Origin: Bacteroidota bacterium
GTDB lineage: Bacteria; Bacteroidota; Bacteroidia; Palsa-965
Reading direction: 5' to 3'
DNA: 64,000 nucleotides
NCBI GenBank assembly: GCA_006218065.1
Contig: VBWE01000014.1
Coordinates: 1,618-65,617, forward strand
The position numbers and the translations under genes were made by a program. Under the pieces are notes generated by a model. That model did not search any database. It was not told the origin of the DNA and worked only from the letters and a program-made list of their open reading frames with translations. This document shows positions 18,787 through 58,792 of this stretch, in pieces; the first letter of the stretch is position 1; each line of letters starts with the position of its first letter.

Positions 18787-18829
18787 TTCGTTTAAAACTA
18801 TCGTAGTAAAAGGTACTATTTTCGATTGC

Positions 18830-18895: not shown

Positions 18896-18898
18896 GGT

Positions 18899-35155: not shown

Positions 35156-35998
35156 ATGATTGTAAAACAGGCTTTAAAATTCGAAACGTTTTCCCTGCAT
35201 AAAATTCATGCGGCAGATACGCTCGCGTTCAGCGCGGAAGCTTACAGCCGGTTTAAATTCGGTCATGGCGGGTACGCGGAACAGTTCGGCCGCGAACTGG
35301 CGCTGAAATTTATCCGCGCGCACAGTGAACTGCTTTTATCCGAAGAAAAGATCGTCCTGCTGCCGAGTCCTTACGATTCCATTCCCACCGCTTCCAATGC
35401 CATGGCGCGTTCGTTCCGCACGGTACTGAATGCGTTCCTGGCCCGCCACGAAAAAAAATCGCTGCTCGAATCCAAAATACACCGCTACAAAACGTACAGC
35501 GTGGATTACGGCAACCTGGATTTTGAAGAAAGACTGCGGCTGATCTCGGCCGATACATATCATATCGACCGCGATTTCCTGAAAGAAGGACTCGTGCTGC
35601 TTATCGACGATGTGCGCATTACCGGGAGCCACGAACTGATGATCCGCAACCTGATCCGGAAAAATGAAGTCCCCGGCCATTTCGTATTCCTGTATTACGC
35701 CGAACTGGCCGACAAATCCGTCGCTCCCGATTTTGAGAATTACCTGAACTACTTTTTTGTGAAGGATATCCGGGGCATTCTCGAGATGATTCATGCGGAT
35801 TTCTTTATTTTTAACACAAGGGTGATCAAGTACATCCTGGGCTGCGATCAAAAACAGTTCGGGCTGGTGCTGGAAACCGTTCAAAAGGATAAACTGGTGC
35901 AATTGTGCGATCATGCGTTCGGCAACAATTACCACCTGATGACCGAATACAAAGAAAACCTCGAACGCATTCAACAACACATCCACTATGGCCATTAA
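35156..35998 (+). CDS. Phosphoribosyltransferase (PRTase)-fold protein of the ter-associated type.
   Basis: LVLLIDDVRITGSHEL is a PRPP-binding loop. The ORF overlaps the next TerD start by 11 bp. Confidence 0.7.
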   Translation: MIVKQALKFETFSLHKIHAADTLAFSAEAYSRFKFGHGGYAEQFGRELALKFIRAHSELLLSEEKIVLLPSPYDSIPTASNAMARSFRTVLNAFLARHEKKSLLESKIHRYKTYSVDYGNLDFEERLRLISADTYHIDRDFLKEGLVLLIDDVRITGSHELMIRNLIRKNEVPGHFVFLYYAELADKSVAPDFENYLNYFFVKDIRGILEMIHADFFIFNTRVIKYILGCDQKQFGLVLETVQKDKLVQLCDHAFGNNYHLMTEYKENLERIQQHIHYGH

Positions 35999-36540: not shown

Positions 36541-36720
36541 GTTCACGTCTCGTCTATCGCTCGACGTGACAAGCCGGCGTTTCAAGTCTAAAGTTTCAAG
36601 TTTAATGTTTCAGGTTTTGTAACGCATCAGATCAAAAGACAAAACGTTGAACATTAAACTTTAAACCTGAAACTTTAGACTTGAAACATTGAACAGTAAG
36701 CAGAACTCTCCGAAGGAATA
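36541..36720. repeat. Post-stop conserved hairpin (CACGTC-N13-GACGTG) followed by a roughly 110 bp complex palindrome (TTTCAAGTCTAAAGTTTCAAG…CTTGAAACTTTAGACTTGAAA).
   Basis: The inverted repeats are directly visible in the sequence. Confidence 0.7.
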
Positions 36721-37381: not shown

Positions 37382-37587
37382 TGCACATGTCTCGACTGCC
37401 GCTCGACATGACGTGTGTTATACACAGAAGTAAAGAGATCGGCTACCGCTCGACATGACGTGTATGTAATACGCGTAAAAGGAACATCGCCGCCACTCGA
37501 TGTGACGAATACTGTAAGGGCGATGCATTGCATCGCCCCAATGTAATACGGTGATGCATTGCATCGCCCGACTGTAATACAAAACTC
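37382..37587. repeat. Cluster of direct and inverted repeats: a post-stop hairpin CATGTC-N13-GACATG, CCGCTCGACATGACGTGT in 2.5 copies, and a tandem pair of GGGCGATGCATTGCATCGCCC palindromes.
   Basis: The repeats are directly visible in the sequence. Confidence 0.7.
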
Positions 37588-38223
37588 ATGAGACGCCTAC
37601 CTGTATATCTTTTACTGGACACTTCGGGTTCTATGCGCGGGGAACGGATCGAGGCGGTGAAAAACGGCCTGCAGGTACTCCTGTCGAAACTTCGCCAGGA
37701 CCCGCATGCGCTGGAAACGGTCTGGATGAGCATCATCACCTTCGACCGCGAAGTGCACCAGGTACTTCCGCTCACCGATCTCGAATCGCTGCAGATGCCC
37801 GAAATCCTCACGCCCGAGTCGGGTCCGACGAACATGGGCGCTGCGCTGGAAATGCTGCTGCAGAAATCCGACGCGGAAGTGATCCGCAGCACCGACGATC
37901 AGAAAGGCGACTGGCGCCCGCTGCTGTTCCTGATGACCGACGGAAAACCTTCGGACCTCGCCGCTTTCCGCGAAGTCGTCCCGAAAGTGAAAAAGAAAAA
38001 TTTCGCCGCCATCATCGCCTGCGCCGCCGGAGCAGAAGCGCAGGACAGTTTCCTGAAAGAACTGACGGATATCGTCGTTCACCTGGACACGGCCGACAGC
38101 AATACGCTGGTTTCTTTCTTCAAATGGGTATCCGCTTCCATCGGTACGGGAAATATGAGCGTCAGTTCTACCGATCAGCTCATCCTTCCGCCGCCGCCGG
38201 ATGAAGTGCACATGATTATTTAA
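37588..38223 (+). CDS. TerY-type vWA domain protein (second paralog).
   Basis: MRRLPVYLLLDTSGSMRGERIEAVKNG is a MIDAS motif. The protein is about 50 % identical to the upstream vWA. Confidence 0.85.
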   Translation: MRRLPVYLLLDTSGSMRGERIEAVKNGLQVLLSKLRQDPHALETVWMSIITFDREVHQVLPLTDLESLQMPEILTPESGPTNMGAALEMLLQKSDAEVIRSTDDQKGDWRPLLFLMTDGKPSDLAAFREVVPKVKKKNFAAIIACAAGAEAQDSFLKELTDIVVHLDTADSNTLVSFFKWVSASIGTGNMSVSSTDQLILPPPPDEVHMII

Positions 38224-38225
38224 TG

Positions 38226-38458
38226 ATTGTTTAAAACTCCTCCGGAGGATATATTACAAAATAAAGAAAATGAAAGTCGGAGTAGTTTCTTTTTCCAGTT
38301 TACAGTTGACAGTTTGCAGTTGGCAGTTTTTGTTTTACAGGGATGTCGTCAAAACTTCCGCGTTAACGCGTTCAAAACTGCCAACTGCAAACTGGAGTAA
38401 GGACATACGATTACAAAATACTCCCGTTTAAAGGAGCTTCGTTTTATACAGTCTGATC
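38226..38458. mobile_element. MITE-like, non-coding element of about 230 bp with imperfect 13 bp terminal inverted repeats (GATTGTTTAAAAC / GTATAAAACAGTC-type) and a perfect internal 22 bp inverted repeat. This is copy A.
   Basis: It is homologous (about 80 %) to the reverse complement of 48311-48540. It has no ORF. Confidence 0.6.
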
Positions 38459-38469
38459 GAATCCGTTCT

Positions 38470-38727
38470 ATGAAAACATTTTTTTTCCTGTTCCTGAATG
38501 TTTTGATCATTGGCTTGTTCCTGTTTTCAAAATTATTGCCTTACAAGGACAAGCTCGGTAAACAGTACGCAGGAATATTCCGGTTCTTCCAGGCCATTTT
38601 CGACCCGGTGCTCAACTTCATGCGGAAGTTGTTCAAACCGGCGCAGGTAGGGCAGGGACTGGCGGTGGATATGGCGCAGATCATTTTACTGGTGCTGCTT
38701 TTAATCCTGCTGAATTTTTGCAGATGA
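38470..38727 (+). CDS. Small two-TM membrane protein (85 aa), possibly YggT-like.
   Basis: The ORF has two hydrophobic helices. Confidence 0.4.
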   Translation: MKTFFFLFLNVLIIGLFLFSKLLPYKDKLGKQYAGIFRFFQAIFDPVLNFMRKLFKPAQVGQGLAVDMAQIILLVLLLILLNFCR

Positions 38728-38734
38728 AAAAAAA

Positions 38735-38815
38735 TCCGAATGGCGAATGCCGAACTCCGAATGTTGAATTGCGAATTTTGCATTCGGCATTCGACATTCG
38801 GAGTTCGAAATTCAA
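38735..38815. repeat. Nested palindrome and hairpin (CGAACTCCGAATG…CATTCGGAGTTCG, with GAATGCCGA…TCGGCATTC inside).
   Basis: It is visible in the sequence. It is related to the GAATGCCGA repeats at 165-215. Confidence 0.6.
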
Positions 38816-38850
38816 AAAACGTTCTTCTGTTTAACAAGACATAAAAACCC

Positions 38851-39903
38851 ATGAGAAGACTACCCATTTATTTCCTGATCGACATCTCCGAATCGATGGT
38901 GGGCGAACCCATCCAGATGGTGGAAGAAGGTCTTGCCACGATCATCAAGGCGCTGAAAGAAGATCCCTATGCACTCGAAACGGTGCATGTATCCATCATC
39001 GTTTTTGCCGGCCAGCCGAAAACGCTGGTTCCGCTGCAGGAGATCATCAACTTCTACCCGCCGCGTTTCCCCATCGGCGGCGGTACTTCGCTGGGCAACG
39101 GGCTCGGGCACCTTATGTACGAACTGCGGAAAAATACGATCATGACCACGCTCGAACAAAAAGGCGACTGGAAACCGATCGTATTCCTGTTTACCGACGG
39201 CGTTCCGACGGATGATTCGTCGACCGCGATCGCGGAATGGAAAAAGAATTGGGCCAGCAAAGCCAGCATGGTTGCCGTTTCTTTCGGAAGTGAAACCGAC
39301 CTGGCCCTGCTCAAGGAACTTACCGATACCACGTTCATGTTCAAGAATACGAACGTGAACCAGTACAAGGAATTTTTCAAATGGGTTACCGCTTCCATCC
39401 GCACCAGCAGTCTGAGCGTGGAAAACAACGGTTCCGGTTTCGAACTGGCCAAGCCCGACGACGCTGTGATCGCGAAAGTGGACCATGTGGAGAACCATAA
39501 GCCCAAACAGTTTGTTGATACCAACTACGCGGTCTTCGTGGCCAAATGCCAGAACACGAAAAAACCGTACCTGATGAAATACAAACGTATGGTTCGTCCC
39601 ACGACGGTCGGCGGAATGGAGATGAACAGCCTGGTGTACCGCCTCAACGGCGCGTTCATCATCGACGATCTGTATTTCGAATTGTCGGACAACAACGCAG
39701 TGAACAATAAAATCAGCACCGACGAGATGGAAGGATTTCCGACCTGCCCTTCGTGCGGAAACCAGTACGGTTTCAGCGTGTGCAGCTGCGGCAAAATGCA
39801 CTGCGTGGGCAATGAAGAAACAAGCACCTGCCCGTGGTGCGGAAACCAGGGCAAATACGGATTCGGCGAAGGCCGCATGGACATTAATACCACGCAGGGT
39901 TAA
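38851..39903 (+). CDS. TerY-type vWA domain protein with a C-terminal Cys-rich zinc-ribbon module.
   Basis: MRRLPIYFLIDISESM is a MIDAS motif. The C-terminal CPSCGNQYGFSVCSCGKMHCVGNEETSTCPWCGN is a zinc ribbon. The TAATG overlap couples it to the downstream phosphatase gene. Confidence 0.85.
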   Translation: MRRLPIYFLIDISESMVGEPIQMVEEGLATIIKALKEDPYALETVHVSIIVFAGQPKTLVPLQEIINFYPPRFPIGGGTSLGNGLGHLMYELRKNTIMTTLEQKGDWKPIVFLFTDGVPTDDSSTAIAEWKKNWASKASMVAVSFGSETDLALLKELTDTTFMFKNTNVNQYKEFFKWVTASIRTSSLSVENNGSGFELAKPDDAVIAKVDHVENHKPKQFVDTNYAVFVAKCQNTKKPYLMKYKRMVRPTTVGGMEMNSLVYRLNGAFIIDDLYFELSDNNAVNNKISTDEMEGFPTCPSCGNQYGFSVCSCGKMHCVGNEETSTCPWCGNQGKYGFGEGRMDINTTQG

Positions 39904-41318
39904 TGGAACGCGACCTCCGGAAAGATTATATCAAGAGATTACTGGCTTCGAAGCGGATGGAAATTCCGCAGAAGCAGGCGGATTTTTTCGACCGTTTTGT
40001 CGATGATGCCGAAATACTGAACCATTATCAAAGCATAAATAACGCTGCACGAAATATCATGGACACCTGGAAAGAACGCTCGGTCATCGAAGATATCCGT
40101 ACCAAGCATATTCAACTGCCGAATGCGACCGTAGGCAAACCCTACAGTTTCGAATTTTCCCTGGCGAAAATGGGACTGCAGCACATAGAAGAATTCGAGA
40201 TCGACGGTTTTTCGGAACTCGGCCTGAACTTCGATAAAGCCACCGGCATCTTATCCGGCGCGCCCGGGATGAAAGGCGAACATAAAATCAAGTTCCGTTA
40301 TAAACTCGACTTCGGCGCAGAGGAGAGGTCTTTCCATGAAAAGGAACTGACCTTCGTAGTGAATCCCGATCCGAAATCGCTCTGGCAGAATTTACCTTCG
40401 GACAAAGAAGACAAATTCTGGAAAGAAGACAATACTTCGGCGAAGTATGAAATCGCCGGCCGTCATCTCGTGGTGGGTTCCAAGCGGGGCCGCAGCCATG
40501 CGCACGAAGGAAAATTCCGCGACGACGAATATGATTTCTTTTTTGACGAATCGACCGGTTTCGGCGTGATCGTGGTTTCCGACGGGGCCGGCAGTGCGAA
40601 ATATTCGCGGAAAGGTTCGCTGATCGCCTGCGAAAGTGTGGTCGAATATTTTTCGAAAGAAATTCCAGCCGAAGAATACGCCGCGCTCGATGCGACGATT
40701 ATTTCGCATCACCAGGCCAAAACAGACGAAAGTTCGAAAACGCTGCGCGAGTTCCTGGTCAGCCGTCTCGCGAAAGCGGCTTTTTACGCTCACCAGAAAA
40801 TCAAAACCTGTGCGGACGAAAACGAATCCGCCCTGCGGGATTTTTCCGCCACCTTACTGTATTCATTGGTCCGGAAATATGATTTCGGTTATTGCATCAT
40901 GTCTTTCGGCATCGGCGACGGCGGCATCGGTATTTACGACAAGGAGAAAGGCGAATCGCACCTGCTCACCACGCCCGACGGCGGCGAGTTTGCGGGGCAG
41001 ACGCGTTTCGTGACGATGCCCGACATTTTTACGAGCGAAGGATTCTACAACCGGGTTTCGTTTAAGATCGTGGACAATTTCACGGCGCTCGTGCTGATGT
41101 CCGACGGCATTACCGATCCGAAATTCCAGACCGACGCCAACCTCGGCCGCGTGGAAAAATGGGCGGAACTCTGGGAAGATCTCGGCGGAAAAAATGCGGA
41201 CAACGCAACAGTCAAATTCGATCCTGCCAATGAAAATATCGAAGCGGAACTGCTGGACTGGATGGATTTCTGGTCACCCGGGAACCACGACGACAGGACG
41301 ATCGCCATACTGTATTGA
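39903..41318 (+). CDS. PP2C-family Ser/Thr phosphatase with an N-terminal extension domain.
   Basis: GVIVVSDGAGSA is PP2C motif 1/2 and LVLMSDGITD is the C-terminal metal-binding motif. Confidence 0.75.
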   Translation: MERDLRKDYIKRLLASKRMEIPQKQADFFDRFVDDAEILNHYQSINNAARNIMDTWKERSVIEDIRTKHIQLPNATVGKPYSFEFSLAKMGLQHIEEFEIDGFSELGLNFDKATGILSGAPGMKGEHKIKFRYKLDFGAEERSFHEKELTFVVNPDPKSLWQNLPSDKEDKFWKEDNTSAKYEIAGRHLVVGSKRGRSHAHEGKFRDDEYDFFFDESTGFGVIVVSDGAGSAKYSRKGSLIACESVVEYFSKEIPAEEYAALDATIISHHQAKTDESSKTLREFLVSRLAKAAFYAHQKIKTCADENESALRDFSATLLYSLVRKYDFGYCIMSFGIGDGGIGIYDKEKGESHLLTTPDGGEFAGQTRFVTMPDIFTSEGFYNRVSFKIVDNFTALVLMSDGITDPKFQTDANLGRVEKWAELWEDLGGKNADNATVKFDPANENIEAELLDWMDFWSPGNHDDRTIAILY

Positions 41319-41382
41319 TTAAATTCCGAATTCGTACATTCGTAAGGATTTGTAATTCGCAGCCCCGAAGGAAAACAATCTT

Positions 41383-42912
41383 ATGTCAAACACGATCACC
41401 ATCAAAGCGCTCGACGGAAGCACCGTTCAGTATGTCGACAACGGCTCGCCGATGCAGGGCGGGCTGAAGGATGTGTATTTCAGTCCCGATAAAAGTTACG
41501 TGGTCGCTTTTTTCCGCGACAAGCTCAAGCCGGTGGAATATACGCAGACCAAAGAGCGCCTGATCATGATCGCCAACACGTTCCGGGAACGGATTTTCAA
41601 CCAGGCAGGCGGCGAGTACTGGAAAGACCTGTACTGCTGGCCGACCAAAGTGGTTGAATATAACGGCAGGCTCGGTGTGGTTGCGCCGGTTTACCAGAAG
41701 CATTTCTTTTTCGCCACCGGGTATAACCAGAACGCTGCGCAGATCGCGAGTATCAGGGGAAAAGAAAAAGAAGGCAAGTGGTTCGCCGCGCCGCAGTTCC
41801 GCAACGCGAATTTCAAACTGCATCTCGATAAAAAAGAACTCGGCGACTGGTTTAAATATTTCCTGGTCTGCATTCGTATCAGCCGCGCGGTGCGCCGTAT
41901 GCATGCCGCCGGTCTCGCGCATTCCGACCTCTCGTATAAAAACGTACTCATCGATCCCACCACCGGCAACGCGGCCATCATCGATATCGACGGGCTCGTG
42001 GTCCCGGGCAAGTTTCCGCCCGACGTGATCGGTACGCCCGATTTTATCGCGCCCGAAGTCATGGCTACGAAAAGCCTCGGGAAAACCGATCCGAACCGGA
42101 AACTGCCGAGTATCCAGACCGACCGGCACGCGCTGGCCGTGATGATCTATATGTACCTGCTTTATCGTCACCCGCTGCGTGGCGGCAAAGTGCACGATCT
42201 CGATCCGCAGAAAGATGAAGAACTGTCCATGGGCTCGAAAGCCCTGTTCGTGGAGCATCCGACCGACGCCGCGAACCGGCCGAAACTGAAACACGTCAAA
42301 GCGACGCACCTGCCCTGGGCCGACGTAACGAAATTGCCATACACCATCACCGGGCCGTACCTGAAACAACTTTTCGACAAAGCGTTTATCGACGGATTGC
42401 AGCACCCGATGCAGCGGCCGACAGCCGACGAGTGGGAGCAGGCGCTGATCAAAACGGTGGACCTGATGCAGCCCTGCCAGAACCCGCGCTGCGACCAGAA
42501 ATGGTTCGTGTTCGACAATTCCACCACGCCTATCTGCCCGTTCTGCAACACACCTTATAAAGGCCAGCTGCCGATCCTCAACCTCTACTGGCAGCGTTCC
42601 CCGGGAAAATGGGTGGAAGAAAAACACCGCCTGATGGTTTATAATAACCAGTACATTTACCAGTGGCACATCAACCGGACGATTTCGCCGAACGAACGAC
42701 TTTCGGCCGAACAGAAAAAACCGGTCGGTTATTTCGTGATGCACGGCGGAAAATGGATGCTCGTGAATCAAACCATGAACAGCCTGAAAGACGTAACGGA
42801 GAATAAAGAAATTCCCATCGGCCAGATGATCGAACTTACCGACGGTAAACAGATTCTTTTATCGAATGCCGATGGCGGAAGACTCGTCATCGTTCAACTT
42901 GTAAACAACTAA
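41383..42912 (+). CDS. Eukaryotic-like Ser/Thr protein kinase with a C-terminal Cys-rich region.
   Basis: HSDLSYKNVLID is the catalytic loop HxDxxxxN, IDIDGL the DFG equivalent and GTPDFIAPE the APE motif. The C-terminal CQNPRCDQ…CPFCN is Cys-rich. Confidence 0.8.
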   Translation: MSNTITIKALDGSTVQYVDNGSPMQGGLKDVYFSPDKSYVVAFFRDKLKPVEYTQTKERLIMIANTFRERIFNQAGGEYWKDLYCWPTKVVEYNGRLGVVAPVYQKHFFFATGYNQNAAQIASIRGKEKEGKWFAAPQFRNANFKLHLDKKELGDWFKYFLVCIRISRAVRRMHAAGLAHSDLSYKNVLIDPTTGNAAIIDIDGLVVPGKFPPDVIGTPDFIAPEVMATKSLGKTDPNRKLPSIQTDRHALAVMIYMYLLYRHPLRGGKVHDLDPQKDEELSMGSKALFVEHPTDAANRPKLKHVKATHLPWADVTKLPYTITGPYLKQLFDKAFIDGLQHPMQRPTADEWEQALIKTVDLMQPCQNPRCDQKWFVFDNSTTPICPFCNTPYKGQLPILNLYWQRSPGKWVEEKHRLMVYNNQYIYQWHINRTISPNERLSAEQKKPVGYFVMHGGKWMLVNQTMNSLKDVTENKEIPIGQMIELTDGKQILLSNADGGRLVIVQLVNN

Positions 42913-42933
42913 AACAAAATACAGGTATCCCTT

Positions 42934-43746
42934 ATGGATCAACTGCAAATTTACATCGACCAGATTATTCAAAACCCGCTTGCAGCGCTGGCTGTGATCG
43001 GTAACCTGATTGTTATCGAGAGCCTGCTTTCCGTGGACAACGCGGCCGTACTGGCCACGATGGTTATGGATTTACCCAAAGAGCAACGTGCCAAGGCCCT
43101 TCGTTACGGGATTATCGGCGCTTACGTTTTCCGCGGACTCTGTCTTTTGTTTGCCGCTTACCTGATCACGATCTGGTGGCTGAAGCCGCTCGGCGGATTA
43201 TACCTGCTGTATCTCGTTTTCGATTATTTCAAGGGTAAAATGACGCCGGATAAAGAAGAAGACGTGCTCGAAAAACAATCGCACTGGATGTACCGCGCCA
43301 CGATCGGCTGGATGGGCCAGTTCTGGGCTACGGTAGCGCTCGTGGAAATTATGGACCTGGCGTTTTCCATCGACAACGTATTCGCCGCGGTGGCTTTCAG
43401 TGAAAACCTGGTCCTGATCTGGGTCGGCGTGTTCATCGGTATTCTCGCGATGCGTTTCGTTGCGCAGGGATTCGTAAAATTGATGGAACGTTACAAGTTC
43501 CTGGAAACGGCAGCGTTCGTGGTTATCGCCGTGCTGGGCATCAAGCTCATGCTCTCGCTGCTTGAACATTTTTACCCGGATCACGCGTTCAGCAAATTTC
43601 TCGGAAGTCACGCCGCCGACTGGGGTGTGTCGATCATTACTGTTTCCATCTTCTTCATTCCGATCATCACCAGCACCTTGTTCAATTTCCCGAAACGCGG
43701 CGTGCCGGGAGAGAGCGAGGAAAGTAAAGAGGAAGAGAGTAAGTAG
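42934..43746 (+). CDS. TerC-family integral membrane protein.
   Basis: The 270 aa product has about 7 TM helices and the typical TerC pattern (…SVDNAAVLATMV… / …SIDNVFAAVAF…). Confidence 0.85.
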   Translation: MDQLQIYIDQIIQNPLAALAVIGNLIVIESLLSVDNAAVLATMVMDLPKEQRAKALRYGIIGAYVFRGLCLLFAAYLITIWWLKPLGGLYLLYLVFDYFKGKMTPDKEEDVLEKQSHWMYRATIGWMGQFWATVALVEIMDLAFSIDNVFAAVAFSENLVLIWVGVFIGILAMRFVAQGFVKLMERYKFLETAAFVVIAVLGIKLMLSLLEHFYPDHAFSKFLGSHAADWGVSIITVSIFFIPIITSTLFNFPKRGVPGESEESKEEESK

Positions 43747-43840
43747 TCATGCCTCGACTACCGCCCGGCATGACAAGTGTGTTGAATATAGTTGTACCGC
43801 CTGTCGCTCGAACGGACAAGTCTGTTGAAAATAGTTGTAC

Positions 43841-43885
43841 CGCCTGCCAGCCTCCTCCGCCTCAGGCGGAGGAGGCTGGCAGGCG
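43841..43885 (+). terminator. Perfect 21 bp-stem palindrome downstream of the TerC gene.
   Basis: CGCCTGCCAGCCTCCTCCGCC-TCA-GGCGGAGGAGGCTGGCAGGCG. Confidence 0.6.
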
Positions 43886-43950
43886 CTCGTAAAAGTTGCC
43901 GAAAAAATCCCCGCAGAAAAAACGGCAAAAGAAAACACCAATTTCCTATG

Positions 43951-43993
43951 CCGAACCAATTCCCCTCTCTGCCGGAGAGGGGTTGGGGTGAGG
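43951..43993. terminator. 43 bp element containing the hairpin CCCCTCTC-TGCCG-GAGAGGGG. It is identical to 2327-2369, and both copies lie immediately 3' of minus-strand genes.
   Basis: The two copies are exact duplicates in the sequence. Confidence 0.6.
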
Positions 43994-44015
43994 TCTGGAA
44001 AACAGACCGGATAAC

Positions 44016-45731
44016 TTACAAAGGTTTGATATCCTTTATACTCAACTGCACGCTGACGTTTCCGTTGAAGTCGTTTTCTTCGATGGCGTAGCACATGTCG
44101 AAGGGTTTTTGCTGGGAAAGCGCGAGGTAATGGTCGCCGAGACCGAAACCGATGGCGGGGAAAATGCGCGTGGGTTGCGCGGGATCGACGATATCCATTT
44201 TCAGGTGATTGACGCCTACGATGCGCAGCCAGCCGCGGTCGCGGACATCGCTGGCGAGGAAAACGGGATTCATATTCCCCGGTCCGAAGGGCGCGAACTG
44301 TTTCAGTATCCGCAGGAGTTTTCCGTCGATATCGTTCAGGCTGAGCGTTGCGTCTATTTCCACTTCGGGCGTGAGCATGTCGGGCGTGATGCGGCGGCTG
44401 ACTTCTTCTTCGAAACGTTCGCGGAATTTTTCCACGTTTTCTTTTTTCAGCGTGAGTCCTGCCGCATATTTATGCCCGCCGAACTGCTCGAGCAAACCGT
44501 TGCAGGCTTCGATGGCTTCGTACACGTCGAAATCTTTTACTGAGCGCGCCGAGCCGGTTACCATGCCGTTTGCTTCGGCGAGTACGATGGTGGGCCGGTA
44601 GTACTTCTCGATCAGCCGCGAAGCCACGATACCGACTACGCCTTTATGCCACTGCGGCTGGAAGAGTACGGTGCTTTTCCGTTGTGCCGCCAGCGGATCG
44701 GCCGCCATCATGTCGAGGGCCTGTTGCGTAATCAGCATGTCGAGGTCTTTGCGGTCGGCGTTGTTTTTGTTCAGTTTTTCAGCGCAGGCTTCGGCTGTTT
44801 TTTCGTCCGGCGCGGTGAGCAGTTCCACCGCCAGCTTGCCGTGTTCGATCCGCCCGGCAGCATTGATCCGCGGGGCGATCGTAAATACCAGGTCGCTCAC
44901 GGTAAATTCGCGTTTCAACGCAGCCATGCGGACCAGGGTTTTTAATCCTTCGCGCGGAGAAGTGTTGATCTCTTTCAGCCCGGCATACATCAGCGCGCGG
45001 TTCTCGCCCGTTACCGGTACAATATCGGCGGCAATACTCACGGCTACGAGATCGAGCAGCGGAAGCAGTTTTTCAAAATCGATTTTCCTTTTCTGCGCAT
45101 AAGCCTGCACCAGTTTGAAACCGATGCCGCAACCCGTAAGTTCATCGTAAGGATAAGTACAATCGTCGCGTTTCGGATCGAGCACGGCCAGTGCGGGCGG
45201 CAGTTCCGGTCCCGGGCGATGGTGGTCGCAGATGATAAAATCAATTCCTTTTTCCCCGGCGTAACGTACTTTTTCCACCGCCTTGATGCCGCAGTCGAGC
45301 GCGATGATGAGTCCGAATTTATTTTCCGCCGCAAAATCGATCCCGGCGTACGAAATGCCGTAGCCTTCTTTATAACGGTCGGGAATATAAAAACCGCATT
45401 CCGCGCCCAGCGCTTTTATAAAGGAGTAGACGAGCGCCACGGCAGTTGTACCGTCCACATCGTAATCGCCGTAAACCAGGATTTTTTCTTCGTTTTCGAT
45501 GGCGTGTTCAATGCGGTCGACCGCTTTGTCCATATCGCGCATCAGGTAGGGATCGTGCAGCTGGTCGAGCGAAGGGCGGAAAAAAATCCGCGCTTCTTCA
45601 AATGTTTTTACTCCCCGCAGCACCAGCAGGCGCGCGAGCAGCAGATGAATTCCCAACTCACTTGCGAGCTTTCGGACCAGTTCTTCGTCCGCACCCGTTT
45701 TTTGCTTCCAGCGCTTGATCATCATGAGCAA
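44016..45731 (-). CDS. recJ: Single-stranded-DNA-specific exonuclease RecJ.
   Basis: ILVYGDYDVDGTTAVALVY is DHH motif I, CDHH is the DHH motif, and there is a DHHA1 region. Confidence 0.9.
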   Translation of the reverse strand: MLMMIKRWKQKTGADEELVRKLASELGIHLLLARLLVLRGVKTFEEARIFFRPSLDQLHDPYLMRDMDKAVDRIEHAIENEEKILVYGDYDVDGTTAVALVYSFIKALGAECGFYIPDRYKEGYGISYAGIDFAAENKFGLIIALDCGIKAVEKVRYAGEKGIDFIICDHHRPGPELPPALAVLDPKRDDCTYPYDELTGCGIGFKLVQAYAQKRKIDFEKLLPLLDLVAVSIAADIVPVTGENRALMYAGLKEINTSPREGLKTLVRMAALKREFTVSDLVFTIAPRINAAGRIEHGKLAVELLTAPDEKTAEACAEKLNKNNADRKDLDMLITQQALDMMAADPLAAQRKSTVLFQPQWHKGVVGIVASRLIEKYYRPTIVLAEANGMVTGSARSVKDFDVYEAIEACNGLLEQFGGHKYAAGLTLKKENVEKFRERFEEEVSRRITPDMLTPEVEIDATLSLNDIDGKLLRILKQFAPFGPGNMNPVFLASDVRDRGWLRIVGVNHLKMDIVDPAQPTRIFPAIGFGLGDHYLALSQQKPFDMCYAIEENDFNGNVSVQLSIKDIKPL

Positions 45732-46096
45732 AAGTACATATTAAAAATGCCGTGCCGGTTGCGGAAAATCCCTCCCAGGGAAAAGATTTTTTGGAATAGT
45801 AAGTACTATATAGTATTATAATACAAGAGAGAAATATTTTTCAACAAGTGAGTTAGCTGAGTGCTTCGGCCGGAAGATAAGTGTCCCGGTACTCTTCGTG
45901 TTTCTTTGTGCCTTCGTGTCTTTGTGGCAAGAGCAACATAGGTCGCCAGGAGCAACCTCATAGAAATACAACATGATTATATTTGCTTATAATACGTCGC
46001 GCATGAAAAACCGGGATATGAAAACGTACGACGCCAAAGGTGCCTTGAAGAAGGCGCGGCAGTTTGCGTAAAAAATGCAATCTTAAAAAACAGGAT

Positions 46097-46459
46097 ATGA
46101 AAAACATAAGACCACTGGATTTAGAGAAATACCACGATTCCACGCATTATAAGCTGATCGAAGAAGGTATTTACCTGGATTTAAATGATTCGGAAGGAAC
46201 GAACCATAGATTCCCCGTTTCCGCGGAACTGGAAGATGGTGAGGACGGTCAATATCCGATCGAAGATATTTTGGACAAATTCTATTTGCATGTTTCTGAT
46301 TTTCTCGAATCTGAAAACCGCTCACAAAATCAATTAAAACTGGAATTAGCCGGTGAGTTGGAAGATATCCGGCAAGCAAAAATAATTTTGGGAAAAAGAG
46401 TCTGCAACAGGGAATTTATTAAAGATGGAAAGACGTACGTTGATTTGATAATTGAATAG
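46097..46459 (+). CDS. Small acidic hypothetical protein in an AT-rich patch.
   Basis: This is an ORF only. Local GC content drops sharply over 45780-46460. Confidence 0.4.
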   Translation: MKNIRPLDLEKYHDSTHYKLIEEGIYLDLNDSEGTNHRFPVSAELEDGEDGQYPIEDILDKFYLHVSDFLESENRSQNQLKLELAGELEDIRQAKIILGKRVCNREFIKDGKTYVDLIIE

Positions 46460-46480
46460 CTGTACACAACAACGGCTGAC

Positions 46481-47176
46481 ATGAAAAAAACCATCCTCAT
46501 CACCGGTTCCGGCAAAGGCATCGGTTTTGAAACCGCACGACAGCTCGGTTTGCTCGGGCACACCATCATCCTTTCGGGGCGTGATGAAAAACGTTTACAG
46601 CTTGCCGTTCGGAAACTGCAGAAGGAAAACATCGAAACGGTTTCGCTGCTCATGGACGTGAGCGATGAAAAAAGTATCCGGTCTGCCGCGAAAGAGCTCG
46701 GCAGGCGCAAGATTAAACCGGACGTACTCATCAACAACGCCGCGATCCTGGGTCGTGCGGATGAGTCGATCATCGGCGGCGATGAGGAACTTTTACTGCA
46801 AACGCTCACCACCAACAGCCTCGGCCCGCTGCGCGTGATCAAAGCGTTTCTTTCCCTGCTGAACAAACCGGCGCGCATCATCAATATCTCGAGCGGCGGC
46901 GGATCGATGAGCGACCCGGTGGCGGGCTGGGCGCCGGCGTACTGTGTTTCGAAAACCCTGCTGAACGCCATCACCCGGCAACTGGCGGAGGAATTAAAAA
47001 GCAAAAATATTATTGTGAACGCCGTTTGCCCCGGCTGGGTGCGCACCGATATGGGTGGCGCCGGGGCGCCGCGGGCAGTATCCAAAGGAGCCGAAACGCC
47101 CGTGTGGCTGGCTACCGAAGCGCCCTCCGGCCTGACCGGGAAATTTTTCCGCGACAAAAAAGAAATCGACTGGTAA
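46481..47176 (+). CDS. SDR-family oxidoreductase (carbonyl-reductase-like).
   Basis: ILITGSGKGIGFETA is the Rossmann motif, and there is a YCVSK-type catalytic YxxxK. Confidence 0.8.
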   Translation: MKKTILITGSGKGIGFETARQLGLLGHTIILSGRDEKRLQLAVRKLQKENIETVSLLMDVSDEKSIRSAAKELGRRKIKPDVLINNAAILGRADESIIGGDEELLLQTLTTNSLGPLRVIKAFLSLLNKPARIINISSGGGSMSDPVAGWAPAYCVSKTLLNAITRQLAEELKSKNIIVNAVCPGWVRTDMGGAGAPRAVSKGAETPVWLATEAPSGLTGKFFRDKKEIDW

Positions 47177-47288
47177 GCTTCTGAAGGAATCCTTCCGGCC
47201 GGGCGAATCATAAAAATTAACGGTTCCGCTTGTTGTTTTTAAAAACTTCGTACATTTGCGTAGTCAACTACATAGTTAACTACATAAA

Positions 47289-47816
47289 TTGAACAGCATG
47301 AACATTCTCGAAGAAATCGGTCCGCTGGCGGTCGCTGCGCGGCTTCAGCGCCTGGCCGACACCATCCGCAGAGATGGTACGGTGATCTATAAAAAACATG
47401 GTATCGATTTCGAACCGAAATGGTTCCCGGTGGTGTATGTGCTCAAACGCAAAGGTGCGCTCAGCGTGGTCGACCTGGCCGGGGAAGTGGGCCTCGCGCA
47501 TCCGTCCGTCATCCAACTGGTGAAAGAACTGGAAGCGAAAGAACTGGTGAAATCATCCAGCGATAAAGCCGACGGTCGCCGCCGTTTGCTCACGCTCACG
47601 CCCAAAGCGCAAAAACTGGTTACGAAAATGGAACCGGTCTGGGATAAGATCCGCGCAGCCGTTGCAGAAATGGTGAAAACCGAAAACAACCTGATGAAGG
47701 CGATCGCCGAAACGGAAGAGCAGCTGAAACGCGAAAATTTTTACATGCGCGTGATGCGGCAGGAGCAAAGGAAAAAATTCCAGAAACAACAGGCAGGTAA
47801 AATCATACAGTCATGA
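47289..47816 (+). CDS. MarR-family transcriptional regulator.
   Basis: The translation has a winged HTH (…LSVVDLAGEVGLAHPSVIQLVKELEAKELV…DGRRRLLTLTPKA). Confidence 0.75.
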   Translation: MNSMNILEEIGPLAVAARLQRLADTIRRDGTVIYKKHGIDFEPKWFPVVYVLKRKGALSVVDLAGEVGLAHPSVIQLVKELEAKELVKSSSDKADGRRRLLTLTPKAQKLVTKMEPVWDKIRAAVAEMVKTENNLMKAIAETEEQLKRENFYMRVMRQEQRKKFQKQQAGKIIQS

Positions 47817-48313
47817 AAACCGATACAGCTAAATTCAGCGCGATCATTTCGCCGGAACTTTCGATCGTCGAATTCGAGCCGCAGCACGGCAAAGCATTCC
47901 GCGACCTTAACGTGGCCTGGATCACAAAAAGTTTCTGGATGGAAGAATCGGACGAGATCGTGCTCAGCAATCCCGAAAAACATATCCTCGAACCGGGCGG
48001 ATCCATCCTCCTGGCGAATTACAAAAATCAGATCGTCGGGACCTGTGCGCTGATGTACGAAGGACACGGCATTTACGAACTCACCAAAATGGCAGTGGAT
48101 GAAAATCTGCGCGGACTGAAGATCGGCTTTCACCTGGGCGTATGCACGCTGCAGAAAGCAAAACAACTCGGCGCAACCAAAGTGATCCTGCACTCGAATA
48201 CCAAAGGTTCGGCCGCCGCGATCCAACTGTATTTCAAACTGGGCTTTCGTGAAGTCCCGCTCGGGGATGCGCCCTGGGCGAGAGCGGATATCAAGATGGA
48301 AATTGATCTTTAA
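47813..48313 (+). CDS. GNAT-family N-acetyltransferase.
   Basis: QIVGTCAL…RGLKIGFHL is acetyl-CoA binding motif A. The ATGA overlap with the MarR gene indicates coupling. Confidence 0.75.
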   Translation: MKTDTAKFSAIISPELSIVEFEPQHGKAFRDLNVAWITKSFWMEESDEIVLSNPEKHILEPGGSILLANYKNQIVGTCALMYEGHGIYELTKMAVDENLRGLKIGFHLGVCTLQKAKQLGATKVILHSNTKGSAAAIQLYFKLGFREVPLGDAPWARADIKMEIDL

Positions 48314-48540
48314 CAGATTGTATAAAACGAAGTTCCTTTAAACCGACAGTTTTGTGATCGTATGCACTTACTTCAGTTGGCAGTTTTGAACGCATTAACG
48401 CGGAAGTATTCAAAAGTTTTGACGACATCCCTGTAATACCAAGACTGCTACTGCCACTGCCGACTGCCGCTGGATCTACTCCGACGTATAGCAACGGTTT
48501 TCCTGTAAAACAGTTCTGCGGAGGAGTTTTAAACAGTCGT
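48311..48540. mobile_element. MITE-like element copy B. It is inverted relative to copy A and more decayed.
   Basis: The reverse complement aligns with 38226-38458 across about 230 bp. Confidence 0.6.
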
Positions 48541-48544
48541 TAAA

Positions 48545-50026
48545 TCAAACCGGTTTTACACTCTGCCCGTGCCGGATCGTATTTTCCGGGTCGTATTTTT
48601 TCTTCACCTGCTGCAGGCGTTCGTAATTTTTACCGTAATACGCGTGCCCCGGATCTTCAAAATCGAGGTTGGCGTAATTCACGTAGTGCGCGGTCATGTT
48701 GTTTTCTTTTACCAGCTGCTGCACGGAGTTGAATTTCGCCAGTTGGTTTTGCCCGCCGCCCGCATTTTCCCAGTAAATCTGCAATTCCGAAAGGAATGGT
48801 TTAGCGCGATGCGGGAAGCAGGAATTTTTTTCCAGTTCCGCGTCCGAAATTTTTCCGCCGATGGTTCCCAACTGGTAAATCATGCCCGGCGACTGGGTAA
48901 CGATAGCGAGCAGTTCGGCGGCGAACGGTCGGATTTCTTCGTAATCTTTATAAACGCCCGCCGAAGAAATTTTGAAATAGATCGGTTTATCGTACCCGTA
49001 ATAATTTTTCAGCGCTTTGGAAAGCGTAACCGGGTTGCCGGCCGTGGCTTTGTCGCTGACCGCAGCAAGCGCATCGAAAACGGATTGAACCTGCGGCGTA
49101 TGTTTTTCATAATTCGTCAGCAGGATCGTCAGCGATTTCCCATTGAGCACAAAAGCGGAGTAGCAGGAGTCCGGTAAAATAACGGCCACTTCCATCCACT
49201 TTTCCAGCAAGGTATTTGCGCGTGCGGCATCGAGCCCGGCGGATTTGAACCGGTGACTGGTAAACGTTTCCGGTGCGGGATAGGTTTTAAAAACCATTTC
49301 CGTCACCACGCCGAAATTTCCTCCACCCCCGCCGCGGCAGGCCCAGAGCAGTTCCGGTTCGTTATCCGAATCGTGGATTTTTCCCTGGCCGTCAACCAGC
49401 GTTACTTTCATCAAACTGTCGCAGGTCAGTCCGTATTTCCTGCCGAAGAACCCGTAACCCCCGCCCGTGGCCAGCCCGCCGATGCCCACCGTGCCGCACG
49501 ACCCGGCGGGAATGATCCGCTTTTCCGGCAGCAGTTCGTCGTACAGTTTCGAAAGCGTGCAGCCCGGACCGATCTTCACGGTTTCTTCGTCCAGCCATTC
49601 GATTCCGTTCAGTTGCGAAAGATTCACCACCATGCCGCCGGTATTGCACGAAAAACCTTCCACGCTGTGCCCGCCGCTTTTCACGGCCACCGCGAGTTTG
49701 TTTTCCGCAGCGTAACGGATCGCTTCGGCCACATCCGCCGTACTTTTGCAAAGCGCGATGACGAGCGGGTATTTATCCACGTTTTTATTAAAACCCTGGC
49801 GCAGCGGATCGTAAAGCGGATCGCCTTTTTTTATGAAGGTTACGTTTTGCTCCCCTGCAGCCGCAGTTGCATTTACCGCCGGAACGGAATCCTTCGCCGG
49901 CGCGGGACTGCCCGTTTTTTGCTGTTTCGGTTCCTCGCCCGAAGAACCGCAGGCCGCCAGCAGCAACCCCCCGCCGCCCAGCGCCCCGATCCGGATAAAA
50001 TCCCTCCTGGTCAGTTTGTTTTTCAT
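48545..50026 (-). CDS. FAD-linked oxidase of the berberine-bridge/PCMH-type family, TAT-exported lipoprotein.
   Basis: MKNKLTRRDFIRIGALGGGGLLLAACGS is a twin-arginine signal with a lipobox. VAVKSGGHSVEGFS is the covalent-FAD His motif. The ORF frame is open to 50068. Confidence 0.8.
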   Translation of the reverse strand: MKNKLTRRDFIRIGALGGGGLLLAACGSSGEEPKQQKTGSPAPAKDSVPAVNATAAAGEQNVTFIKKGDPLYDPLRQGFNKNVDKYPLVIALCKSTADVAEAIRYAAENKLAVAVKSGGHSVEGFSCNTGGMVVNLSQLNGIEWLDEETVKIGPGCTLSKLYDELLPEKRIIPAGSCGTVGIGGLATGGGYGFFGRKYGLTCDSLMKVTLVDGQGKIHDSDNEPELLWACRGGGGGNFGVVTEMVFKTYPAPETFTSHRFKSAGLDAARANTLLEKWMEVAVILPDSCYSAFVLNGKSLTILLTNYEKHTPQVQSVFDALAAVSDKATAGNPVTLSKALKNYYGYDKPIYFKISSAGVYKDYEEIRPFAAELLAIVTQSPGMIYQLGTIGGKISDAELEKNSCFPHRAKPFLSELQIYWENAGGGQNQLAKFNSVQQLVKENNMTAHYVNYANLDFEDPGHAYYGKNYERLQQVKKKYDPENTIRHGQSVKPV

Positions 50027-50099
50027 TGTCCGAAATATCGGAAATCGTTTTTTAACAAAAGGCCCCATTACGAAGACTCCTTTAAACAGACTTCGCTAA

Positions 50100-50205
50100 C
50101 CGTTTAAAAGAATCTCCGCAAGTCGTTTAAAAGAGTCTCTGCAAGTCGTTTAAAAGAATCTCCGCTAGTCGTAGACTGAGTCTACGACTCCACCACGACT
50201 TATGG
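50100..50205. promoter_or_regulatory. Divergent promoter region with three 22 bp tandem repeats (AAGTCGTTTAAAAGAATCTCCGC) followed by a palindrome (AGTCGTAGACTGAGTCTACGACT).
   Basis: The repeats and palindrome are directly visible in the sequence. Confidence 0.5.
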
Positions 50206-50255
50206 ACCACCCTTCTTTCGTTAACTTTACCATAATCTTTTTTTAACTTCGTCAG

Positions 50256-52343
50256 ATGAAGCATTTTCTACCCCTGTTTGGCCTGCTCCTGGTTTGTTCC
50301 GGGACTTTTGCCCAAACTTTTCCCGGCAGTGGCGGCCTGGTTCCTGATGACGGTTCGGTAAACGATTATCCTGCGACGGTGAGCGGTCTTAGTCCTGCCA
50401 CAATCGATACGGTGAACTTCGGACTGGAAACCGTTTGCGTGAACATTACGCATACCTGGAATTCGGATCTCGATGTGCGGCTGGTGGCGCCTGACGGAAC
50501 GGAAATTATCCTGTTCAGCGGCGTGGGCGGAAGCGACGACGATTTTACAAATACCTGCCTGAATTCAAACGCAAGTACTTCTATACTTTCCGGCACGGCC
50601 CCGTTTACGGGAACGTTCAAACCGCAGGGGCAGATGGGCTACGTGAACAACGGCCAGAACGGAAACGGAACCTGGAAACTGCGCATCACCGATACGTATC
50701 CCGCCGACCAGGGCAACCTGCTCAGCTGGAGCATCACCTTCGGAAATAACCCGGCGACGTACAGCGCGTTTACCAGTTCCAATTTACCGCTCGTGATCAT
50801 TAACACGGGCAACCAGTTTATTCCCGACGATCCGAAGATCATGGCCGATATGGGTATCATTTACAATGGCCCCGGCATCCGCAATTACATGACCGACCCG
50901 CATAACAATTACAGCGGGAAAATCGGTATTGAAACGCGCGGCTCGAGTTCGCAGGGCTTTCCGAAAAAATCGTACGGCATTGAATTGTGGGACGTGAACG
51001 GAAATTCCATCGACTCGTCGCTCATCGGTATGCCGAAAGAAAGCGACTGGATTCTCAGCGCCAACTATTCCGACAAATCGCTGCTCAACAATACGCTCGC
51101 GTATCACCTGTTCACGCAAACGGGACATTACGCCACACGCCACCAGCACGTGGAACTGGTGATCGACAGCATTTACCGCGGAGTATATATCCTGATGGAA
51201 AAAATAAAACGTGACAACGACCGTGTCGATATCGCCAAACTCCAGCCGACTGATATTGCGGGAGACCAGCTTACCGGCGGATATATTATCAAGATCGACA
51301 AAGGAACCGGCAGCGGCGGCTCGGGCTGGAATTCGAATTACGCGCCGCTCGGCAGCACCAACGGGCAGCAGATTTTTTTCCAGTATGAATACCCGAACGA
51401 GATCGATATTGTTCCCCAGCAGCAGGCATACATCCAGGCGTACGTGGACAGTTTCGAAACCGCGCTGAACGGACCGAACTTCGCGAGCCTCACGGCGGGC
51501 TATTCCAAATACATCGACGTTACGTCGTTCATCGATTATTTGCTGCTGAACGAAATCAGCCGCAACGTGGACGGCTACCGGTTGAGTACGTACCTGTTCA
51601 AAGACAAGCTGAGTAACGGCGGTAAATTGTTCATCGGTCCGCCGTGGGATTACGATATCGCCTGGGCCAATGCGAACTACTGTCGCGGCGACGATGCAAC
51701 CGGCTGGGCGTATCGTTTCAATTACGATTGCAGCGGCGATTACTGGCAGATCCCGTTCTGGTGGGAACGTCTTTTGCAGGATCCGGTTTTCGCGAATCAT
51801 TTGCGCTGCCGCTGGGAAACGCTGAAGACGACGGAATACAGCATCGCTACCCTGCACGCGTATTGTGATTCGATGGCGATTTACCTGAACGAAGGCCAGC
51901 AGCGGAATTTCACCGAATGGCCGATCCTCGGTCAGTACGTATGGCCGAATCCTTCACCGATTCCGTCCACGTTCCAGGGAGAGATCGATGAACTGAAAAA
52001 CTGGATCAGCGCACGCTGGGCCTGGATGGATGCGAATATGCCCGGAAGCCTCGCCGGCTGCGACCTGGCCGTGCAAAGCGGAAATGCCGCCGCGGATTTC
52101 GTTTCGGTTTTCCCGAACCCGTTCCACGATCAGCTTACCTTGCAATTCAAACTGGAAACAGCGAGCGATGTAACGATTGTAATGTCCGACATCACCGGCC
52201 GGCAAATTTCGTTCGTCCGCGAAAAAATGAATGCCGGCGGCCAGGATTACAAACTGCCCGTGGAAAATATTTCGCCGGGAATTTATTTGCTCAGCGTCAG
52301 CGCGGAAGGCAGAACGTTCACAAAGAAAATCGTGCGGCAGTAA
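50256..52343 (+). CDS. CotH-family protein with an N-terminal proprotein-convertase P-like domain and a T9SS type A C-terminal domain (paralog 1).
   Basis: The product has a signal peptide. The P-domain pattern is IDTVNFGLETVCVNITHTWNSDLDVRLVAPDGTEI. CotH-like blocks are KSYGIELWD, VELVIDSIYRGVYILMEKIKRD and PPWDYDIAW. The C-terminal ...FPNPFHDQLTLQF…GIYLLSV…KIVRQ is a T9SS tail. Confidence 0.75.
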   Translation: MKHFLPLFGLLLVCSGTFAQTFPGSGGLVPDDGSVNDYPATVSGLSPATIDTVNFGLETVCVNITHTWNSDLDVRLVAPDGTEIILFSGVGGSDDDFTNTCLNSNASTSILSGTAPFTGTFKPQGQMGYVNNGQNGNGTWKLRITDTYPADQGNLLSWSITFGNNPATYSAFTSSNLPLVIINTGNQFIPDDPKIMADMGIIYNGPGIRNYMTDPHNNYSGKIGIETRGSSSQGFPKKSYGIELWDVNGNSIDSSLIGMPKESDWILSANYSDKSLLNNTLAYHLFTQTGHYATRHQHVELVIDSIYRGVYILMEKIKRDNDRVDIAKLQPTDIAGDQLTGGYIIKIDKGTGSGGSGWNSNYAPLGSTNGQQIFFQYEYPNEIDIVPQQQAYIQAYVDSFETALNGPNFASLTAGYSKYIDVTSFIDYLLLNEISRNVDGYRLSTYLFKDKLSNGGKLFIGPPWDYDIAWANANYCRGDDATGWAYRFNYDCSGDYWQIPFWWERLLQDPVFANHLRCRWETLKTTEYSIATLHAYCDSMAIYLNEGQQRNFTEWPILGQYVWPNPSPIPSTFQGEIDELKNWISARWAWMDANMPGSLAGCDLAVQSGNAAADFVSVFPNPFHDQLTLQFKLETASDVTIVMSDITGRQISFVREKMNAGGQDYKLPVENISPGIYLLSVSAEGRTFTKKIVRQ

Positions 52344-57498: not shown

Positions 57499-57807
57499 GG
57501 GATGAGGGTCATCAACCGGATAACGGGTACACGGTCCGAAGGGTTGGAATTGGTGGTAAAAAATGTTTAAAAAGCCCGAATTACCCTGATTTTACCCTGT
57601 TTTGGGTATGGATTTACCCGTATTTACGGGCGTTCTTTGTATCGTGAATACACCAAACATCCAGGCCCGGGACGCCCGTCCTGAAAACAGTTGCGAGATC
57701 TGCCCTTTTGCGGAGTTGCTGGCTGTAAACTGGAAGAAGAAAAAGAAGTGCTGCAAAAGCTGGAAGAAAGATAAGCGATGCGGCAAATGTCCCGCGCATT
57801 AGCCTCC

Positions 57808-57895
57808 ATTTTCGATTTTGGATTGCCGATTTGCGATTTATTCGTGCGGCAGGTTGTGCGCCAATCATAAATCGTCAATCGTAAATCATTTATCC
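57808..57895. terminator. Fourth copy of the GATTGCCGATTTTGG-family repeat, immediately 3' of the SCO gene.
   Basis: TTTTCGATTTTGGATTGCCGATTTGCGATTT … AATCGTCAATCGTAAATC. Confidence 0.45.
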
Positions 57896-58548: not shown

Positions 58549-58792
58549 GCATCAGGGAGATATAAAATTCCTTCGGAATAAATCGTTTACCAGATATGAG
58601 ATGTGAGATATGAGACTCCGTATTTCATCACATACATGTATGCTTCCGTTTGCTGTTAATTATGCTGACAACTCGCTCAGCAAGTCTCAAATCTCAAGTC
58701 TCACATCTCATATCTGGTAAAACAGACGTATTGAATTGTTTACTTTTTATTTCCCTGATCACAATTTTAAACACACCTTCCGGAACTGAAGG

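Follow-up and report, generated by a model that had tools for sequence, protein, structure and literature searches.

The window analysed here is a stretch of 64,000 nucleotides from contig VBWE01000014.1 of a Bacteroidota bacterium, and it carries two inverted copies of a repeat of 231-238 bp, each of which occupies a gap at the end of a gene. Copy A (38218-38455, + strand) lies in a tellurite-resistance-like (ter) operon, where it fills the gap from the stop codon (38221-38223) of the VWA/TerY gene TerY2 (37588-38223) to the start (38470) of a gene for a YGGT-like protein of 85 aa (38470-38727). Copy B (48314-48545, - strand) fills the entire gap between two convergent genes, from the stop codon (48311-48313) of a GNAT gene (47813-48313) to the stop codon (48545-48547, minus strand) of a BBE/FAD-oxidase gene (48545-50068, - strand). 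Besides the YGGT-like and GNAT genes, the 9.9 kb segment between the copies holds the genes for TerY-C (38851-39903), PP2C (39903-41318), a kinase (41383-42912), TerC (42934-43746), RecJ (44016-45731, - strand), SDR (46481-47176) and MarR (47289-47816). All these assignments come from Pfam, and they bear out the gene content given in an original prediction, which a model had made from the DNA letters. In base composition the segment does not look foreign, except for one AT-rich 500-bp patch at 46.0-46.5 kb. Because the window contains sorting domains of the type IX secretion system (T9SS) and its best protein matches come from Chitinophaga, its source can be placed, on this protein evidence, as a Chitinophagaceae-like member of the Bacteroidota.

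We aligned copy A (+) with the reverse complement of copy B using MAFFT and blastn, and delimited the full homology with MAFFT, blastn and nhmmer for copy A and with MAFFT and nhmmer for copy B. The two copies are homologous from end to end (blastn E 6e-32 in the 64 kb window, 250 columns). The MAFFT alignment has 175 identical, 48 mismatched and 33 gap columns, the last falling in five larger indels (8, 2, 10, 7 and 1 nt). This corresponds to an identity of 78.5 % on aligned bases, or 68 % if the gap columns are counted. The homology opens at a common ATTTAA and closes at a common TCTG, so that it starts 7-8 nt before the start given in the original prediction; the flanks of the two copies are otherwise unrelated, with nothing in common beyond ATTTAA. 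Overall, the two inverted copies of about 230 bp that had been predicted, and their alignment over the whole length at about 80 % identity, hold with small corrections of the coordinates. The longest exact run common to the copies is 23 nt, and they have no 31-mer in common. Both copies are real and not artefacts of assembly, since independent assemblies of the same sample reproduce their junctions at 100 % identity, namely the Logan contig L021, which spans copy A, and the ENA contig L015, which spans copy B.

Exactly at the boundaries of the homology, each copy carries a 13-nt terminal inverted repeat (TIR), GAYTGTWTAAAAC. In copy A, the left TIR GATTGTTTAAAAC (38225-38237, + strand) matches the reverse complement of the right TIR GTTTTATACAGTC (38441-38453, + strand) at 11 of 13 positions, and the same score is reached in copy B between the left TIR GACTGTTTAAAAC (48526-48538, - strand) and the right TIR GTTTTATACAATC (48316-48328, - strand). 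The chance of such a match at the ends is estimated as ~1e-3, allowing for 100 offset pairs, and after an offset of 4 nt the TIR is extended by CTCCT. The imperfect terminal inverted repeats of the original prediction are therefore present.

Inside copy A, a lag-7 periodicity scan and the fold reveal five 7-nt units (CAGTTTA, CAGTTGA, CAGTTTG, CAGTTGG and CAGTTTT; 38296-38330, + strand), the last three of which (38310-38330) form the left arm of a perfect 21-bp hairpin with the right arm AAAACTGCCAACTGCAAACTG at 38374-38394 (+ strand). The loop of this hairpin contains the conserved core TTACAGGGATGTCGTCAAAAC, which is part of the 23-nt run common to copy B, followed by the palindrome CGCGTTAACGCG (together 38335-38370, + strand). 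In copy B, the corresponding array has diverged (GGCAGTC, GGCAGTG, GCAGTAG and CAGTCTT; 48441-48468, - strand) and pairs weakly with 48374-48387, while the core and a near-palindrome (CGCGTTAATGCG; 48391-48436, - strand) are split by a 10-nt insertion relative to copy A. The stem of copy B is largely decayed, as its left arm has diverged and its right arm retains 14 nt. Thus, the perfect inverted repeat (38310-38330 / 38374-38394) exists in copy A only; a perfect internal repeat of 22 bp had been predicted, and it is found there with a length of 21 bp and is absent from copy B. In addition, the Logan unitig L016, which runs over the oxidase gene, ends at 48466, that is, at the 5' edge of the 7-nt array of copy B, two bases in when read in the orientation of the element. 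Since the copies have no 31-mer in common, this break may reflect variation of the array length in the population, or low coverage.

No conserved open reading frame (ORF) was found in the repeat. The sole mini-ORF common to the copies, an antisense frame of 23/24 aa, is open in both but is frameshifted through its middle; as this part is read in different frames in copies A and B, the mini-ORF is non-coding, and the earlier claim that neither copy encodes a protein is upheld.

The ter operon is conserved gene for gene in the relatives compared, with TerY2 proteins 82-88 % identical, and this allows the site of copy A to be traced. The spacer between TerY2 and yggT measures 8 bp in two relatives (L008 and L009), 39 bp in L010, 185 bp in L007, and 246 bp in the window, and the 185 bp of L007 are unrelated to the element. 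Given these short or unrelated spacers in the relatives, copy A must have been inserted into the conserved operon. The relatives compared are species and not strains, so the empty site shows insertion as such and not recent mobility. The 185-bp filler of L007, the closest relative, lies at 10592-10776 of that locus, exactly at the spacer that copy A occupies in the window, and it folds well (-59 kcal/mol). We considered it as a relative of the element and rejected it, as it is non-homologous and does not recur in the loci compared. The TerY2/yggT spacer seems prone to gaining small non-coding inserts. For site B, L017 is the nearest relative with a BBE gene (71 % identity); there a convergent SDR gene lies 34 bp past the BBE stop codon, and the element is absent.

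We have searched for further copies at several levels. With blastn and nhmmer, the 64 kb window yields these two copies only, and nhmmer --max with the whole element and with three modules, run over the window and all compared loci, gives no further copy. There is no extra copy in the ENA and Logan contigs of the same sample (L015, L016 and L018-L021), which cover the window and about 1-1.4 kb beyond its ends (L019 on the left, L018 on the right). Exact-block scans, which need exact 19-22-mers and would miss diverged members, returned for the core 19-mer 4 matches of 19-21 nt in 185,579 GTDB species genomes, all in unrelated phyla and thus attributable to chance; in JGI metagenomes, they returned 0 matches to the 5' block and 4 chance matches to the core. 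Taken over both collections, the chance matches span 19-25 nt and fall in unrelated taxa. Four blocks of the element gave 0 matches in IMG/VR, as did blastn against PLSDB plasmids and phages. A possible very distant relative of the 5' module, which we do not count as a copy, lies at 6106-6188 (- strand; nhmmer E 0.044 with the full profile and 0.63 with the 5' module alone). This statistically marginal match begins at a DUF3078 gene's stop codon (gene at 6176-7144, - strand), in the 3' flank, and its sequence (GAAGTTTTAAAAATCCTCAGCGTAACTGTTTCCAGGAA...CGGAGTA) is similar to the element's first ~70 nt; a different 7-nt-periodic hairpin (units GATTGxx) with an 85-nt loop comes next. Another candidate, a 37-nt match of 84 % between a PRTase gene (35493-35529) and the BBE gene near copy B, was rejected as peptide convergence, since both genes natively encode Y-x-N-L-D-F-E.

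Considering that the repeat has TIRs, is non-coding, measures ~230 bp, occurs as two diverged copies in unrelated flanks and is missing from site A in relatives, we lean, with moderate confidence, towards the interpretation that it is a low-copy and old element resembling a transposable element of the miniature inverted-repeat type (MITE), which was inserted independently at two gene ends. Its length is within the size range of MITEs (about 50-600 bp). Copy A would have been inserted in a very short spacer of the ter operon between TerY2 and the yggT-like gene, and copy B, separately, in a very short spacer where the BBE-oxidase and GNAT genes converge. The 13-nt ends (GAYTGTWTAAAAC) might be recognised by a transposase with its gene elsewhere in the genome, and this enzyme would move the element in trans. 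Once inserted, the element would be transcribed within the mRNA of its neighbours, where the ends and the 7-nt-periodic hairpin could fold into a rod-like structure, which in turn may affect mRNA stability or read-through. The copies would not act together, and the 9.9 kb between them would be ordinary chromosome. The sources of the two copies were probably different, because copy A is absent from relatives in which neutral DNA is already unalignable, and yet copies A and B differ by 21 % plus indels; if so, more members should exist elsewhere in the genome.

Several observations weigh against a MITE-like origin. The known copies are two only, in the window and in the collections scanned, and neither a longer unit bounded by the TIR motif nor a transposase or parent insertion sequence (IS) with these ends was found in the window and the loci of relatives. 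No clear target-site duplication was found in the flanks of either copy. TTAA flanks copy B on both sides, at a distance of 1 nt from the left TIR and 2 nt from the right one; at copy A it stands on the 5' side only (ATTTAA at the left junction, TCTG followed by ATCG at the right one). These TTAA stretches include or adjoin stop codons and so may be nothing more than flank sequence. The empty sites permit two reconstructions of a duplication, ATTATTTAA (from L010) or ATC-TGA-TC (from L007 and L008), which are indistinguishable. Copy B has no clean empty site, since L017 also lacks the MarR-GNAT pair. In both copies, position 3 of the TIR is non-complementary. Finally, the differences between copies A and B are concentrated in certain parts of the element, with long internal blocks left identical (run-clustering p = 0.018), which hints at constraint on these blocks and would suit a functional RNA or a protein-binding element equally. 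Overall, the size, the lack of coding capacity, the TIRs and the empty site are those of a MITE, while it so far falls short of one in copy number, target duplication and parent IS. The MITE-like reading of the original prediction is the best one available, given the TIRs, the non-coding nature and the empty site A; no clear target duplication, parent IS or third convincing copy was found in the collections searched.

Correia/NEMIS elements of Neisseria and ERIC/IRU elements of enterobacteria occur in tens to hundreds of copies, with a defined target duplication (TA for Correia) and, for some, a known parent IS. The present element is like these bacterial MITEs in its size of ~230 bp, in being non-coding, in its TIRs and in its intergenic position at gene ends, as well as in its likely co-transcription with neighbours and in that the whole element can be folded into a hairpin-like rod. 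It differs from them in having two known copies, no demonstrable target duplication and no parent IS found. Within the phylum, the closest described analogue is the BrickBuilt MITE of Porphyromonas gingivalis, which is always intergenic and consists of a leader, an internal tandem array whose length varies, and a tail in which the inverted-repeat ends are small; its array is built from direct-repeat units of 23 nt (at most 22.8 of them in one element), 19 copies are present in each genome, and it has promoter activity (PMC4596501). The likeness lies in the modular build, and the units of the present element are 7 nt, number 4-5 per copy and form one hairpin arm, with no conserved promoter motif.

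Another known type of small element, the palindrome-associated transposable element (PATE) derived from IS200/IS605, has no TIRs, has conserved subterminal hairpins at both ends, and is inserted 3' of a fixed target of 4-5 nt without duplication. The TIRs speak against this origin, and, in addition, the left subterminal palindrome of copy A, TCCTCCGGAGGA, is not retained in copy B (TCCTCCGCAGAA). The common 5'-flank ATTTAA is the sole feature that fits it.

Among the alternatives, the one that keeps a modest chance of being correct is a structured intergenic repeat maintained by the host, of the type of ERIC, Correia or the repetitive extragenic palindromic sequences (REPs) and bacterial interspersed mosaic elements (BIMEs), which would act mainly on RNA, as a 3'-end hairpin that stabilises or punctuates mRNAs, and would spread rarely, mobility being secondary. 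Both copies start 0-7 nt from a stop codon, although such closeness is expected of any insertion into a spacer of 8-40 bp. Copy A folds well, with its perfect 21-bp stem (-65 kcal/mol; z -3.55 against shuffled sequence), whereas copy B, in which the long stem has decayed, folds no better than shuffled sequence (z -1.24). The ends could pair and close the structure in both copies, and the internal blocks are more conserved than uniform decay would leave them, at the p value of 0.018 given above; on the other hand, none of the 38 pairs of the two-sequence consensus fold shows a compensatory change. Long hairpins with 7-nt-unit arms in many other gene-end gaps of the window and of L008 also favour this alternative. 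A hairpin followed by a T-run, as in a terminator, is not common to both copies, and in neither orientation is the hairpin succeeded by a T-run.

REPs are 20-40 nt long, highly abundant and mobilised by RAYT (TnpA-REP) proteins, and no 13-nt TIRs bound a 230-bp unit in them. The present element resembles REPs and BIMEs as a palindromic intergenic repeat at gene 3' ends, but it is six times longer and has two known copies, and the sequence itself is not widespread in the exact-block scans. The widespread REP-type terminator that the original prediction had named as the finding that would argue against a MITE is thus not what we observe: the sequence occurs twice only, and the two copies have no hairpin with T-run in common.

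It is rather improbable that the two copies result from a one-off local duplication or gene conversion of intergenic DNA, with no dedicated mobility. Such an event would account for the presence of only two copies, 10 kb apart in one region, with none elsewhere in the collections searched. It fits poorly with a homology that stops sharply at inverted-repeat ends, with flanks shared no further than ATTTAA, and with copies that are inverted and stand in unrelated contexts. Furthermore, the 21 % divergence and five indels, set against the absence of copy A from relatives, speak against copy A having been copied directly from copy B.

The element may also be viewed together with other hairpins of the window. 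Long hairpins whose arms consist of 7-nt units occur in many intergenic gaps (5984-6120, 18818-18899, 22899-22945, 36579-36690, 38745-38813, 57801-57842, 58586-58721 and 60713-60801), and the arrays inside the element (38296-38394 and 48441-48468) belong to the same class. The units are GATTGxx, GTTTCAA, GAATGxx, GAGATxT, CAAATxx and CAGTTxx. In a lag scan of the window, period 7 is detected in seven regions, and periods 5, 6, 8, 9 and 10 are detected nowhere. In L008, hairpins of this kind are seen at 9013-9152 and 9789-10000, in the same ter spacers and with other units (TTTCGGA and CTTAGAA), while the closest relative, L007, has short spacers without 7-nt-periodic hairpins. Because L008 has its hairpins in the same ter spacers with other units, the hairpin architecture appears to be kept between the window and L008 while the sequence is not.

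No description of this class of 7-nt-periodic hairpins was found in the literature searched. Heptamer repeats of a simpler kind are known: in cyanobacteria, STRR sequences are intergenic tandem repeats of heptanucleotides. TAACTGA repeats occur between genes in Beggiatoaceae, Cyanobacteria and a few Bacteroidetes (PMC4679880). The likeness to the present arrays lies in runs of 7-nt units near start or stop codons and in their variable length, and CAGTTnn is close to the complement of TAACTGA (TCAGTTA). These repeats, however, are plain direct repeats of one fixed heptamer, whereas the present units vary at two positions, and the present array is matched by a complementary array, which makes a long hairpin inside a larger element bounded by TIRs. 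One might go further and suppose that the element is a member of an undescribed modular class of Chitinophagaceae intergenic sequences, with conserved 5' and 3' modules around a 7-nt-array hairpin, and that the hairpins arise from one dedicated process, being mobile or self-expanding and not ordinary terminators; we regard this wider proposal as doubtful.

It is quite unlikely that the two copies are paralogous genes for a small RNA, or paralogous cis-regulatory RNAs (leader or riboswitch-like). Such an RNA would explain the conservation of the 23-nt core and the adjoining palindrome (CGCGTTAA followed by C or T and GCG, a change that retains a G-U pair). Against it, no Rfam covariance model matches at the gathering threshold in the whole window; with an E-value threshold, copy A yields sub-threshold noise from miRNA precursors, at 18-27 bits where the gathering scores are 50-211, and copy B has no match at all. 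The consensus structure of the two copies is weak (-23 kcal/mol) and shows no covariation, and neither a sigma-70 promoter nor one of the Bacteroidetes type (TAnnTTTG, -7) was found conserved in both copies. Copy B, moreover, cannot serve as a leader, because what it faces is the 3' end of a gene running towards it.

The original prediction had also suggested that the copies bracket a segment and could serve as substrates for its inversion, and this part of it is not supported. In the relative L005, recJ and cotH lie side by side in divergent orientation, with 118 bp between them. The window keeps them in the same relative orientation but 4.5 kb apart, with recJ inside the 9.9 kb segment and cotH, its conserved neighbour, outside it beyond copy B. 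The DNA between them (45732-50255) comprises a small ORF in the AT-rich patch, SDR, MarR, GNAT, copy B and the BBE oxidase, and it is best read as an indel between lineages, with an otherwise normal GC content. On the other side, the ter operon is collinear across the site of copy A in L007, L008 and L010. With the recJ-cotH pair straddling copy B and the order of the ter genes unchanged at copy A, the comparison of gene orders argues that the segment is neither a transferable unit nor inverted relative to its ancestry, and that the pairing of the copies around it is coincidental. The inversion check in assemblies agrees, as ENA L015 and Logan L021 give the same junctions at 100 % identity. 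A tract of 23 nt does not exceed the minimal efficient processing segment for RecA recombination, and no recombinase gene adjoining the copies was detected with Pfam. That the copies cooperate, be it as the two ends of one composite transposon or as sites at which recombination inverts the 9.9 kb between them, would agree with their inverted arrangement 9.9 kb apart, but is very hard to credit, because recJ-cotH and the ter gene order indicate that the present orientation is ancestral at both junctions, independent assemblies reproduce both, the longest common exact run is 23 nt in DNA of 78 % identity, and no recombinase gene is adjacent.

Next to the same region, tandem CotH-kinase/T9SS paralogues (50256-52343 and 52448-54553) show about 70 % DNA identity in their 5' parts, while in L005 a single cotH gene is succeeded by a ThuA-domain gene. 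Where the promoters of the BBE oxidase and cotH diverge, 50081-50172 contains about 3.5 tandem units of 23 bp (CGTTTAAAAGAATCTCCGCAAGT), and the unit is loosely like the 5' end of the element (GTTTAAAACTCCTCCGCAGAA). Together the units might form an operator array, for instance for the neighbouring MarR.

Small repeats of the REP/BIME kind, unrelated to the element, do exist in the window. A REP-like small family (CATGTC-TCGACTGCCGCTC-GACATGAC...) stands directly past the stop codons of TerD, TerY1 and TerC, sometimes in tandem, with sites at 36550-36574, 37392-37416, 37439-37463, about 37486-37510, 43754-43797 and 43798-43840. A 44-nt sequence, CCTCACCCCAACCCCTCTCCGGCAGAGAGGGGAATTGGTTCGGC, which contains the hairpin CCCCTCTCC/GGAGAGGGG, is present in two copies of 100 % identity, one (2326-2369, - strand) just downstream of an S8 peptidase gene and the other (43950-43993, - strand) just downstream of recJ. 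Downstream of an amidohydrolase gene, 12416-12597 consists of two tandem 91-bp units of 86 % identity, each with a hairpin (TTCCCTGCACRC...GTGTGCAGGGAA), and the ENA contig containing L019 ends near these units (about 12.76 kb). The S8 peptidase gene itself is split in the window into two overlapping ORFs (2381-4654 and 4542-6077), whereas L019, from the same sample, has 61 extra bases at about 4647-4650 and encodes one S8 peptidase-MAM-T9SS protein of 1175 aa; the split is either an assembly error or a population variant.

The importance of the repeat is limited. If confirmed, it would represent a new low-copy MITE family in an uncultured Chitinophagaceae lineage, and a small element inside a tellurite-resistance-like operon, where the 21-bp hairpin could change how the yggT-like and TerY-P genes downstream are expressed. 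The repeat tells nothing about mobility of the ter/TerY-P cluster, which is chromosomal and has the gene order seen in relatives. Of more general interest is how abundant 7-nt-periodic hairpins are in the intergenic gaps of this lineage.

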